DNA of 64,000 nucleotides from Escherichia coli (lineage in GTDB: Bacteria; Pseudomonadota; Gammaproteobacteria; Enterobacterales; Enterobacteriaceae), in NCBI RefSeq assembly GCF_003334405.1, contig NZ_QOWM01000001.1; one strand, 5' to 3'. The notes beneath the pieces were generated by a model. The model searched no databases. It saw nothing but the letters and a program-made list of their open reading frames with translations, and was not told the DNA's origin. The translations under genes were made by a program, and so were the position numbers. Of this stretch, positions 40,052-40,868 are shown one piece after another. The number at the start of each line of letters is the position of its first letter. Position 1 is the stretch's first letter.

Positions 40052-40054
40052 AAT

Positions 40055-40075
40055 ATGCCGCCCAAAGGGCGGCAT
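40055..40075. terminator. GC-rich hairpin after sseB, with the better U-tract on the minus strand
   Basis: ATGCCGCCC-aaa-GGGCGGCAT. On the minus strand it is followed by AUUUUAGAUU; on the plus strand by a weaker UCGGGCUUACUU tail. Confidence 0.6.
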
Positions 40076-40081
40076 TCGGGC

Positions 40082-40207
40082 TTACTTGCTGCTCTGAAGG
40101 TTGTTAACCACCAGTAAATTGTCGCCGGAGAGACTCCGGTTATTATTTACCTCGGTTAACAGCGCACCAGAAACAATAAGTACGATACAAAAGCACCGTA
40201 TCTTCAT
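40082..40207 (-). CDS. Candidate 41-aa small membrane protein MKIRCFCIVLIVSGALLTEVNNNRSLSGDNLLVVNNLQSSK (hypothetical, toxin-like)
   Basis: ATG at 40207 four nt downstream of hairpin GCGGTCttcgcatgGACCGC (no free SD). Hydrophobic N-terminal segment of ~17 residues, polar Asn-rich tail. Stop just upstream of the 40055-40075 terminator on the minus strand. Confidence 0.25.
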   Translation of the reverse strand: MKIRCFCIVLIVSGALLTEVNNNRSLSGDNLLVVNNLQSSK

Positions 40208-40231
40208 TGTGCGGTCCATGCGAAGACCGCA

Positions 40232-40306
40232 TCACGACAGCACCACTGGCGATATTGCCGCGATAGCAAGCGCTGTGAAACACCTGCATTTACGGCCACG
40301 GAACAT
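40232..40306 (-). CDS. Candidate 24-aa small protein MFRGRKCRCFTALAIAAISPVVLS (hypothetical)
   Basis: ATG at 40306 preceded by AGGAAAGG. Basic N-terminus followed by a 14-residue hydrophobic stretch. Below the 60-aa cutoff of the supplied ORF track. Confidence 0.2.
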   Translation of the reverse strand: MFRGRKCRCFTALAIAAISPVVLS

Positions 40307-40336
40307 CCTTTCCTAAAGCCAGCGCCCGTTTGCGAG

Positions 40337-40534
40337 ACGGCGGAAAGGGCCGCAGTGGATAATACACTAACAGAACAATAATAACTCTCTTTTGCTTGAC
40401 AAAAAGAGAGTTACTGGCGAGTATTGTCTCCGCTGAGACGCGCTTGCATTACTACGGTAATACAACCTGCTGGAAAGGCCGCGAACCGGACCAGCAACAA
40501 AAAACCGCCTGATTTTGGCGGTTTTTTGTTTTTT
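40337..40534. repeat. Paralogous module A of the sseB-sseA spacer
   Basis: Shares with module B a conserved 5' block (82/91 nt identical) containing a perfect inverted repeat, then a ~40-nt divergent core and a ~55-nt conserved 3' block ending in a terminator. Confidence 0.8.
40499..40534. terminator. Bidirectional intrinsic terminator inside module A
   Basis: AAAAAACCGCC-tgatttt-GGCGGTTTTTTGTTTTTT. The A-run upstream and T-run downstream make it terminator-like on both strands. Confidence 0.65.
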
Positions 40535-40658
40535 AAAGGAAAGTGAATTTACATGTTTAAGTAATATCTTTTACCGGTTAGAATTTTTAATTTTGAGCAG
40601 GATTTGTTTATATTTGTCTGAATTCGGACTAATAAGCCAGGTTATTTTATTACCGAAC

Positions 40659-40853
40659 ACGGCGGAAAGGGCCGGTGTCGATAATACGCTAAATAAACAA
40701 TAATTACTCTCTTTTGCTTGACAAAAAGAGAGTTACTGGTGAGTATTGTTTTGCTGTGAAGCACCTGCGTTGCTCATGTAACACAAGTCAACCTGCTGGA
40801 AAGGCCGCGAACCAGACTAGCAATAAAAAACCGCCAAATTCGGCGGTTTTTTA
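40659..40853. repeat. Paralogous module B of the sseB-sseA spacer
   Basis: Same architecture as module A. Its terminator doubles as the sseA terminator. Confidence 0.8.
40825..40853. terminator. Bidirectional intrinsic terminator of module B / sseA
   Basis: AAAAAACCGCC-aaattc-GGCGGTTTTTT, 16 nt beyond the sseA stop codon (minus strand). Confidence 0.7.
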
Positions 40854-40868
40854 TTGCCTGTAAAATAC

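Follow-up and report, generated by a model that had tools for sequence, protein, structure and literature searches.

The closest described system to the locus reported here is timP-timR of Salmonella enterica (ryfA/STnc2070; Andresen 2020, Eleftheraki 2024, 2026), in which TimP is toxic and under repression by a small RNA (sRNA), TimR (PMC7667032). TimR is divergently encoded, and its 5' end pairs with 18 nucleotides (nt) in the 5' untranslated region (5'UTR) of timP, which blocks translation (PMC7667032); the site bound is stem-loop 2 (SL2) (PMC11228461). For timP to be translated, SL1 and SL3 must form a pseudoknot, and a long-range interaction must release the Shine-Dalgarno sequence that SL4 sequesters; the pseudoknot is disrupted upon TimR binding (PMC11228461, PMC13000454). 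In Shigella dysenteriae, two tandem genes, ryfA1 and ryfA2, are each preceded by a divergent RNA of ~100 nt, RyfB1 and RyfB2, respectively, and RyfB1 lowers RyfA1 and not RyfA2 (PMC5333039). Here, we analysed a 64-kb stretch of Escherichia coli DNA (GCF_003334405.1, contig NZ_QOWM01000001.1; hereafter the window, within which all coordinates are counted) and conclude that the interval between sseB and sseA is very probably the timPR (ryfA) type I toxin-antitoxin locus on the chromosome of a K-12-like E. coli, a mosaic with one toxin gene and two antitoxin genes that apparently descends from a tandem array.

The window locus resembles its Salmonella counterpart in carrying a ryfA-family mRNA with the TimP open reading frame (ORF) starting at about +145, a divergent sRNA of ~100 nt, the 5' end of which pairs over ~18 nt with SL2, intrinsic terminators and non-overlapping genes. 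The two loci differ in that Salmonella has a single timR directly beside timP and an extra gene, STM2534, before sseA, whereas the window, as far as its sequence tells, contains two timR-type genes, with the cognate one located ~400 bp from the start of timP, behind a paralog of another specificity. With S. dysenteriae (Fris 2017), the window shares the location between sseB and sseA, the presence of sibling copies, and the complementarity of the variable region of each RyfA to a divergent RNA of ~100 nt. However, S. dysenteriae has kept both ryfA genes, whereas the window has a type-B ryfA only, together with type-A and type-B antitoxin genes (the specificity types are defined below). Typing from the published probes and primers assigns RyfA2 to type B and both RyfA1 and RyfB1 to type C, matching the B+C arrays of E. 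coli strains Santai and GF131; types A and D were not distinguished in the S. dysenteriae paper.

The genes sseB (end 40051) and sseA (ORF end 40869) are convergent, with 817 bp between them in the ORF list, and a lone single-nucleotide polymorphism, at 40606, separates the window from E. coli K-12 MG1655 between 39300 and 41700. A repeat search recovered the two paralogous modules, A and B, that an earlier note, made from the letters of this DNA, had described there. Their shared 5' block is a direct repeat of 91 nt (40337-40427 and 40659-40749), in which 82 positions (90%) are identical, exactly as the note had counted. The divergent core and the conserved 3' block were also borne out: the core separates the first repeat from a second one of 64 nt (40463-40526 and 40789-40852; 84% identity), and both modules are closed by a terminator, a CCGCC/GGCGG hairpin between an A6 and a T6 run. 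Chance would give 0 occurrences of the conserved 21-mer CTGCTGGAAAGGCCGCGAACC in the window, which has exactly two. The pair is presumably what was formerly named PAIR3 (Rudd 1999), a name that we did not find in the literature searched.

The minus strand to the left of the modules (40050-40353), where the earlier note had placed stable hairpins, two short ORFs and, at the end, a GC-rich hairpin with a U-tract, encodes the ryfA RNA, that is, the timP mRNA, as an allele of type B and 304 nt in length (40353..40050, minus strand; MG1655 b4440). The Rfam family RF00126 matches over its full length at these coordinates (model positions 1-296 of 296), with 314.9 bits against a gathering score of 80. 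The timP coding sequence, 41 amino acids (aa) plus stop (MKIRCFCIVLIVSGALLTEVNNNRSLSGDNLLVVNNLQSSK; 40207..40082, minus strand), corresponds to MG1655 b4812 and is annotated as timP by the Prokaryotic Genome Annotation Pipeline; its 41-aa ORF (40207..40085) scores 86.8 bits against the NCBIfam model NF040796 (toxic_TimP; cut-off 45). Together with the MG1655 annotation of ryfA, timP and, within module B, timR (b4811), these matches uphold the assignment to RyfA and TimP/TimR that the note had offered. The mRNA ends at an intrinsic terminator (40075..40055, minus strand), identified by a terminator scan as a 9-bp stem with seven G-C pairs followed by a T-tract, and the sseB stop codon abuts the ryfA 3' end. 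The hairpins and the terminator thus stand, as do both ORFs, of which only timP is real: the second (48 aa; 40289..40143, including the stop) has no protein-family match, and its ATG falls in the variable SL2 and is lacking in ryfA types A and C. In the leader, the SL4 hairpin GCGGUC...GACCGC (ryfA nt 124-143) lies just ahead of the AUG at nt 147, and CGCUGGC (nt 30-36) is complementary to GCCAGUG (nt 104-110), with a G-U pair replaced by A-U in type C; these two segments may correspond to the published pseudoknot nucleotides.

Both modules contain a TimR-type gene upstream of timP and on the strand opposite to it, each with its own promoter and intrinsic terminator; module A adjoins timP and module B lies 400 bp away. 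In both, a perfect -35 element TTGACA is followed, after a spacing of 17 nt, by the -10 element GAGTAT, with the start predicted 7 nt beyond the latter. The divergent promoter block of module A (40354-40429, both strands) comprises the ryfA -10 element TATTAT (40364..40359, minus strand) and, on the plus strand, TTGACA at 40396-40401 and GAGTAT at 40419-40424; module B keeps the same elements, as do types C and D in other strains. The predicted start, ~40431, coincides with the 5' end of the published read cluster of the sRNA ECS011, the sequence of which (CCGCUGAGACGCGCUUGCAUUACUACGGUAAUACAACCUGCUGGAAAGGCCGCGAACCGGACCAGCAACAA) is identical to 40430-40500. A strand-specific Northern blot of the module A core in K-12 gave bands of ~95 and ~100 nt, and ECS011 was equated with "IS129" from an earlier screen (PMC3175480). 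Module A thus encodes, at 40430-40528 on the plus strand, an unannotated TimR paralog of ~99 nt with a type-A seed, identified by the published read cluster, the fold and the seed match. It ends in a bidirectional intrinsic terminator (A6-CCGCC...GGCGG-T6; 40496-40530), an inverted repeat with 14-nt arms that are 100% complementary and form the 3' hairpin of the fold.

In module B, the promoter block (40676-40752, both strands) retains a leftover ryfA-type -10 element (40686..40681, minus strand) beside TTGACA at 40718-40723 and GAGTAT at 40741-40746 (plus strand), and the predicted start, 40753, is the annotated 5' end of timR. This gene (40753-40852, plus strand), mapped to the window from the MG1655 annotation, occupies the 3' two-thirds of the module and has a type-B seed; it shares with the convergent sseA (minus strand) a bidirectional terminator (40820-40857; inverted repeat with 19-nt arms, 95% complementary). 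Both sRNAs have the same predicted three-hairpin fold ending in the terminator, with folding z-scores of -4.3 and -3.1 relative to shuffled sequences. The sRNA C0614 of E. coli screens maps onto the 5' part of module B; as with IS128, IS129 and ECS011, its coordinates coincide with features of the window and its name carries no function. The note's suggestion of sibling sRNA copies is thus well founded, with the modules comparable to RyfB1 and RyfB2 of S. dysenteriae (PMC5333039), and its interpretation as a whole was essentially right for a locus that was already known. Its view that the transcript map cannot be fixed from sequence needs revision insofar as the map is largely fixed already, through annotation and published deep sequencing and Northern blots (PMC3175480).

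Also within the promoter blocks, we observed a perfect palindrome with 12-bp arms, TAACTCTCTTTT GCTTGACA AAAAGAGAGTTA (arms 40382-40393 and 40402-40413), centred on the back-to-back -35 elements TTGACA (plus) and TTGTCA (minus). It is present in both modules (40382-40413 and 40706-40735) and, judged by its form, looks like the operator of a dimeric regulator or a device coupling the divergent promoters.

The two antitoxin genes differ in what they can pair with. Nucleotides 1-19 of the module B sRNA (GCUGUGAAGCACCUGCGUU) form 19 contiguous pairs, 17 Watson-Crick and two G-U, with ryfA nt 64-82 (40290..40272, minus strand), that is, with SL2 of the timP 5'UTR, the variable 'specificity' region. 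The module A seed, placed on ryfA nt 64-83 of the resident mRNA in an ungapped register, pairs at 18 of 20 positions (three G-U), with two mismatches, at ryfA nt 75 and 78, in the SL2 loop, and its longest uninterrupted run is six Watson-Crick pairs, or 11 when G-U pairs are included. Against the type-A ryfA of other strains, the same seed is a perfect antisense match over 17 nt; E. coli O121:H19 FWSEC0006 is one strain with a type-A ryfA. A contiguous TimR seed of ~15-19 nt against the resident timP is thus found in module B and not in module A. The modules therefore differ in status: the resident toxin mRNA has its cognate antitoxin in the distal, annotated timR, and the proximal module A encodes an expressed TimR-family paralog that is not cognate to it.

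We distinguished four specificity types of the SL2/seed element: type A (GCGCTGAGACGCGCTTGC), type B (GCTGTGAA(A/G)CACCTGC) and type C (CACTGTGGGGTGCCTG), all found in the array units of E. coli GF4-3, and type D (GACGAGATACACTTGCA), found in other E. coli strains. By this typing, the window has a type-B ryfA, a type-B module B and a type-A module A. Cognate seed/SL2 pairs comprise 15-19 contiguous bp. Whole-molecule pairing with RNAduplex returned meaningless full-length duplexes and was replaced by windowed duplexes, the ungapped register and net cofold energies, the last being crude estimates (cofold of a 30-nt seed with ryfA nt 45-100 minus intramolecular folding) for types A-D as present in the window, L004, L006 and L007. 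The cognate combinations B-B, C-C and D-D gave -16.2, -17.7 and -15.6 kcal/mol, respectively, B-B being the most favourable on type-B ryfA, and the type B, C and D sRNAs on non-cognate targets gave 0 to -4.7 kcal/mol. Type-A and type-C seeds also occur outside E. coli, in E. whittamii and Escherichia sp. E1V33, respectively, so the types, to judge from these sequences, are probably older than E. coli.

The AT-rich segment between the modules (40535-40658; 124 bp, 28% G+C compared with 53% across the window) was described in the earlier note as containing promoter-like hexamers. The segment and the cited TAGAAT (40579-40584) are there; however, a promoter scan found no promoter-like site within it. 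We conclude from sequence comparison that it is an inter-unit spacer plus a deletion scar and not a promoter region. In E. coli GF4-3, the sseB-sseA interval contains three tandem units of ~680 bp, of types A, B and C. Every unit is made up of 87 bp from the sseB 3' end, annotated as a pseudogene, together with a complete ryfA/timP, a timR divergent from it and an AT-rich spacer, and in each the ryfA SL2 is the exact antisense of the unit's own timR seed. Strains Santai and GF131 carry B+C arrays. The same spacer as in the window at 40535-40658 separates full units in GF4-3, Santai and GF131, and identifies the segment as the spacer of a former tandem array. In the window, it runs into a 14-nt fragment of the sseB 3' end (TTTATTACCGAACA; 40646-40659, identical to sseB 39968-39981), which is fused to a remnant of a second ryfA (40659-40675, minus strand), its first ~17 nt; the 91-nt repeat begins at the equivalent of ryfA nt 17. 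At the position of this scar, the full arrays have the remainder of the sseB tail and a complete ryfA. Therefore, it appears that a deletion removed the second toxin gene and kept its promoter block and antitoxin. A simple tandem duplication of modules A and B was considered and rejected: the spacer is unlike either flank, matches the array spacer and ends in the sseB fragment.

The origin of the parts was assessed against two references from GF4-3, its type-A unit and its type-B unit. In the ryfA body (40078-40329), 16 of 17 informative sites follow the B unit, all 30 in the promoter block and seed of module A (40353-40475) follow the A unit, and all nine in the spacer (40548-40637) follow the spacer after the B unit. 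The breakpoints map to two conserved stretches, the 5' end of ryfA and the 3' part of timR. By this comparison, the locus appears to have been shuffled by recombination between types.

Other loci show further arrangements. Single units were found as A/A (L009), B/B (L002) and C/C (L003). The locus of E. coli L006 consists of ryfA-D, timR-B', spacer and timR-D, with the cognate copy distal, and those of L007, L130, L131 and L134 of ryfA-A, timR-A, spacer and a solo timR-D with its own promoter; the solo type-D timR of L007 has no ryfA stub. Separately, insertion sequences have entered the sseB-sseA interval independently in L008 (IS1A replacing module A), L006 (IS200/IS605 tnpA) and L133 (ISEcB1). 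Since ryfA and timR diverge, the target site (~16-19 nt) and the antitoxin seed constitute a direct repeat along one DNA strand. In L133 (E. coli 06-00048, NZ_CP015229.1; ~1719-1795), the ryfA SL2 CACTGTGGGGTGCCTG runs directly into the 3' part of timR: through recombination between target site and seed, this locus has lost ryfA nt 1 to ~65 along with the two promoters and the seed, and the IS3-family ISEcB1 adjoins.

To place the window arrangement among E. coli, we surveyed 5426 complete genomes, reading 14 loci in full and relying otherwise on BLAST counts. The full 841-bp architecture is present at >=99% identity in 1516 genomes. There are 5604 ryfA places, hence at most 178 extra copies, and 7234 module places in 5413 genomes, with one to three per genome and none on plasmids; no module copy that was read lies outside the sseB-sseA interval. 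We found the spacer in 2243 genomes, and it separates two modules or units in every locus read. A type-A ryfA leader occurs in 2993 of the 5426 genomes and the solo type-D module in 395. In the K-12-type form, found in ~28% of complete genomes, the cognate antitoxin gene is distal, and an expressed antitoxin of the commonest foreign type, A, lies between it and the toxin gene. Extrapolating from the 14 loci, roughly 2000 genomes (~38%) would have more timR-type than timP genes. In the same survey, the 4,641,766-bp chromosome NZ_CM183444.1 (strain BHUCD02) was found to carry, at MG1655-like coordinates (2653874-2653948), a ryfA leader of type A; a strain other than K-12 may have been assembled here with a reference as guide.

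Taken together, these observations suggest the following scheme. The minus strand would be transcribed into the 304-nt timP mRNA (RyfA), encoding TimP, a 41-aa inner-membrane toxin, the translation of which, by homology with Salmonella, would require the structured leader SL1-SL4 with its SL1-SL3 pseudoknot. The 5' end of a TimR of ~100 nt would pair with SL2 and block translation of timP. Module B, next to sseA, would supply the cognate type-B TimR, and module A would be the paralog for a type-A ryfA that is missing here. The modules and the spacer, together with the sseB fragment (14 nt) and the ryfA stub (17 nt), would be the remains of an array of [sseB tail + ryfA + timR + spacer] units, within which recombination would have mixed the specificity types and from which the second toxin gene would have been deleted.

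Several points weigh against this scheme. Under the conditions tried, TimP was detected neither in E. coli nor in Shigella, and deletion of timR in avian pathogenic E. coli (APEC) had little phenotype (PMC13188913, PMC5333039), so the case for a toxin-antitoxin function in E. coli rests on homology; toxicity and the mechanism of repression in the window strain would be as in Salmonella. The annotation of b4811 reads "putative small regulatory RNA TimR", and no direct mapping of the 5' or 3' end of the module B RNA was found in the literature searched. The array-decay scenario was drawn from the sequences of a handful of strains, and L006 and L007 match the window arrangement in part, such that there is likely more than one route to these architectures. 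Finally, by the crude net energies, TimR-A binds similarly to type A (-11.3 kcal/mol), type B (-11.9 kcal/mol) and type D (-13.4 kcal/mol), because the type-A SL2 hairpin (-17.3 kcal/mol) is far more stable than those of types B-D (-9 to -11 kcal/mol). In the energy model, therefore, the label 'orphan' may be wrong for TimR-A, which could act on the resident timP mRNA as a second, functional repressor. Three of the four leader types are thus predicted to be bound about equally well by the type-A sRNA, and among ryfA leaders type A is also the most common.

That module A is no relic and encodes a second, partly redundant repressor, giving two antitoxins and a tighter or differently regulated control of timP, is doubtful in our view. 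The near-complete pairing of the module A seed with the resident leader and its predicted energy on type B, close to that on its own type, agree with such a role, as do the expression of the RNA (PMC3175480), the intact promoter and fold, and the conservation of the full architecture at high identity in more than a quarter of the genomes surveyed. However, that identity may reflect recent common descent, and the two mismatches of the seed fall in the SL2 loop, where we would expect antisense pairs to nucleate. Furthermore, seed mutations abolish rescue in Salmonella (PMC7667032), and the failure of RyfB1 (type C) to lower RyfA2 (type B) in S. dysenteriae (PMC5333039) occurs despite 18 contiguous pairs, counting G-U.

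We consider it unlikely that RyfA of E. coli is mainly a non-coding regulator of stress, biofilm and virulence, with the TimR-type RNAs as its antagonists or partners and the small ORF incidental. Studies in uropathogenic E. coli, APEC and Shigella have reported ryfA phenotypes and no detectable peptide (PMC8205139, PMC13188913, PMC5333039), and a double ryfA-timR deletion in APEC restored wild-type phenotypes. However, the small ORF passes a curated TimP family model and is conserved together with the leader structure in 15 species loci across Enterobacterales, and in Salmonella the toxicity of TimP and its repression by TimR have been proven (PMC7667032). In addition, overexpression of RyfA slows the growth of MG1655 (PMC4606813), and coding and regulatory roles are not mutually exclusive.

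Far less plausible is a minus-strand sRNA, IS128 (40693..40485), as the functional product of the segment between the modules. Rfam predicts this transcript (RF00125; 262.1 bits against a gathering score of 80), a promoter-like site TTGTCA-16-TATTGT lies at 40724..40697 (minus strand) upstream of the bidirectional terminator at 40496-40530, and IS128 was among the differentially expressed RNAs in one RNA-seq study (PMC4676190). However, many E. coli genomes carry this segment at 100% identity, so the strong Rfam match comes close to self-recognition. Deep sequencing gave zero reads for IS128 and a strand-specific probe no band, and the double-stranded probe of the earlier Northern blot also detects the plus-strand RNA (PMC3175480). 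Overexpression of IS128 had no biofilm, motility or fimbriae phenotype, and the segment itself is array spacer plus deletion scar. IS128 thus lies on the undetected strand and, because the published strand-specific data are negative, is probably not a genuine sRNA; it is better regarded as a prediction running from the leftover promoter-like site through the spacer to the module A terminator.

That the modules are copies of a generic extragenic repeat of the repetitive extragenic palindromic (REP), bacterial interspersed mosaic element (BIME) or enterobacterial repetitive intergenic consensus (ERIC) kind, with no locus-specific function, the outcome that would have undone the earlier note, can be dismissed: the modules are palindrome-rich, intergenic and duplicated, but only two copies occur in the window, genomes have at most three and plasmids none, all copies read are confined to one interval, and the seed of each co-varies with a ryfA SL2 allele. 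Ordinary BIME-type REP-like palindromic units, unrelated to the modules (e.g. gccggatgcggcgtaaacgccttatccggcctac), are present in the pepB-sseB spacer (~39125-39250). Further Rfam matches in the window, all expected for this K-12 region, are GlmY (2959-3106; 146 bits), a naRNA4/REP-type element (31778-31849; 72 bits), the iscRS stability element (32566-32675; 138 bits) and SroE (53522-53613; 117 bits).

Homologous loci were sought by scanning genome contigs with the SL4 hairpin pattern GCGGTCNNNGCANNGACCGCAC, a generic G+C-rich palindrome that drew most of its at least 120 loci from unrelated high-GC genomes; 15 enterobacterial loci were usable among the matches listed. Rfam ryfA matches were obtained in these 15 species loci. 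TimR-type genes upstream of ryfA were recovered in 11 other Enterobacterales loci, all with the same architecture, and a simple search found no convincing TimR in Y. artesiana, Y. aleksiciae, Y. similis and C. amalonaticus. An alignment of 12 TimR sequences (four E. coli types and eight homologs, covering Escherichia, Citrobacter, Superficieibacter, Yersinia, Rahnella and Erwinia) revealed a shared pattern, into which both window modules fit: the 5' seed varies, a small hairpin shows compensatory G-C/A-U changes, the GCUGG...CCAGC hairpin is invariant, and a terminator completes the RNA. The central hairpin, being invariant, gives no covariation evidence. There is no Rfam family for TimR, for which only sub-threshold matches were returned (AgrB, OhsC, RNAI and the rimP leader), mostly driven by the terminator; Rfam keeps a family for IS128, probably an unexpressed spacer antisense, yet none for the structurally conserved TimR. 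In Y. similis (L077), Rfam Ysr224 (134 bits; 4361-4467) lies directly upstream of ryfA on the same strand, where the simple search found no TimR-like antisense RNA; the Yersinia arrangement may thus differ.

Among the other divergently encoded type I systems of E. coli, shoB-ohsC, tisB-istR-1, zor-orz and dinQ-agrB resemble timPR in combining a small hydrophobic toxin with a locally encoded, trans-acting antisense RNA that has an extended seed. The sub-threshold similarity of the AgrB and OhsC Rfam models to module B is mostly due to the terminator and amounts to no homology at the gathering score. Multicopy families with copy-specific recognition are a further shared trait; ibs-sib, for instance, is a multicopy type I family of E. 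coli. The timPR system differs in that timP needs no RNA processing (PMC11228461) and in that its copies are alleles or array units at one locus and not dispersed.

The core of the locus is already known, being annotated in the K-12 reference and studied mechanistically in Salmonella. By contrast, the existence of at least four seed/target types, the mosaic loci and the widespread surplus antitoxin copies are possibly new. In the literature that we searched, no source states that K-12 has two TimR paralogs of differing specificity, identifies the proximal one as ECS011/IS129 and non-cognate, or links those names to TimR. Likewise, none describes IS128 and the AT-rich segment as scars of a decayed array, or surplus antitoxins as common in E. 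coli.

These results have immediate consequences for work on timPR of the K-12 type, in which a "timR deletion" or a Northern probe can easily strike the wrong copy or both, and in which the simplest account of IS128 is a deletion scar that lies between two antitoxin genes. The paralog encoded by module A may have persisted as a relic, may back up repression or may confer immunity to type-A alleles. A bolder proposal, which we regard as improbable as it stands, is that timPR forms a polymorphic, recombining set of at least four types in which antitoxins outlive toxins and surplus antitoxins are kept because they are useful, with the seed and SL2 under diversifying selection and not drift. If this were true, the surplus antitoxins may neutralise timP alleles that arrive by recombination, as a form of anti-addiction or immunity, or act as promiscuous back-up repressors. 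The matched and mismatched toxin-antitoxin combinations present in E. coli, with types A-D, full arrays and surplus antitoxins, make this species well suited for tests of how seed specificity evolves in type I systems.

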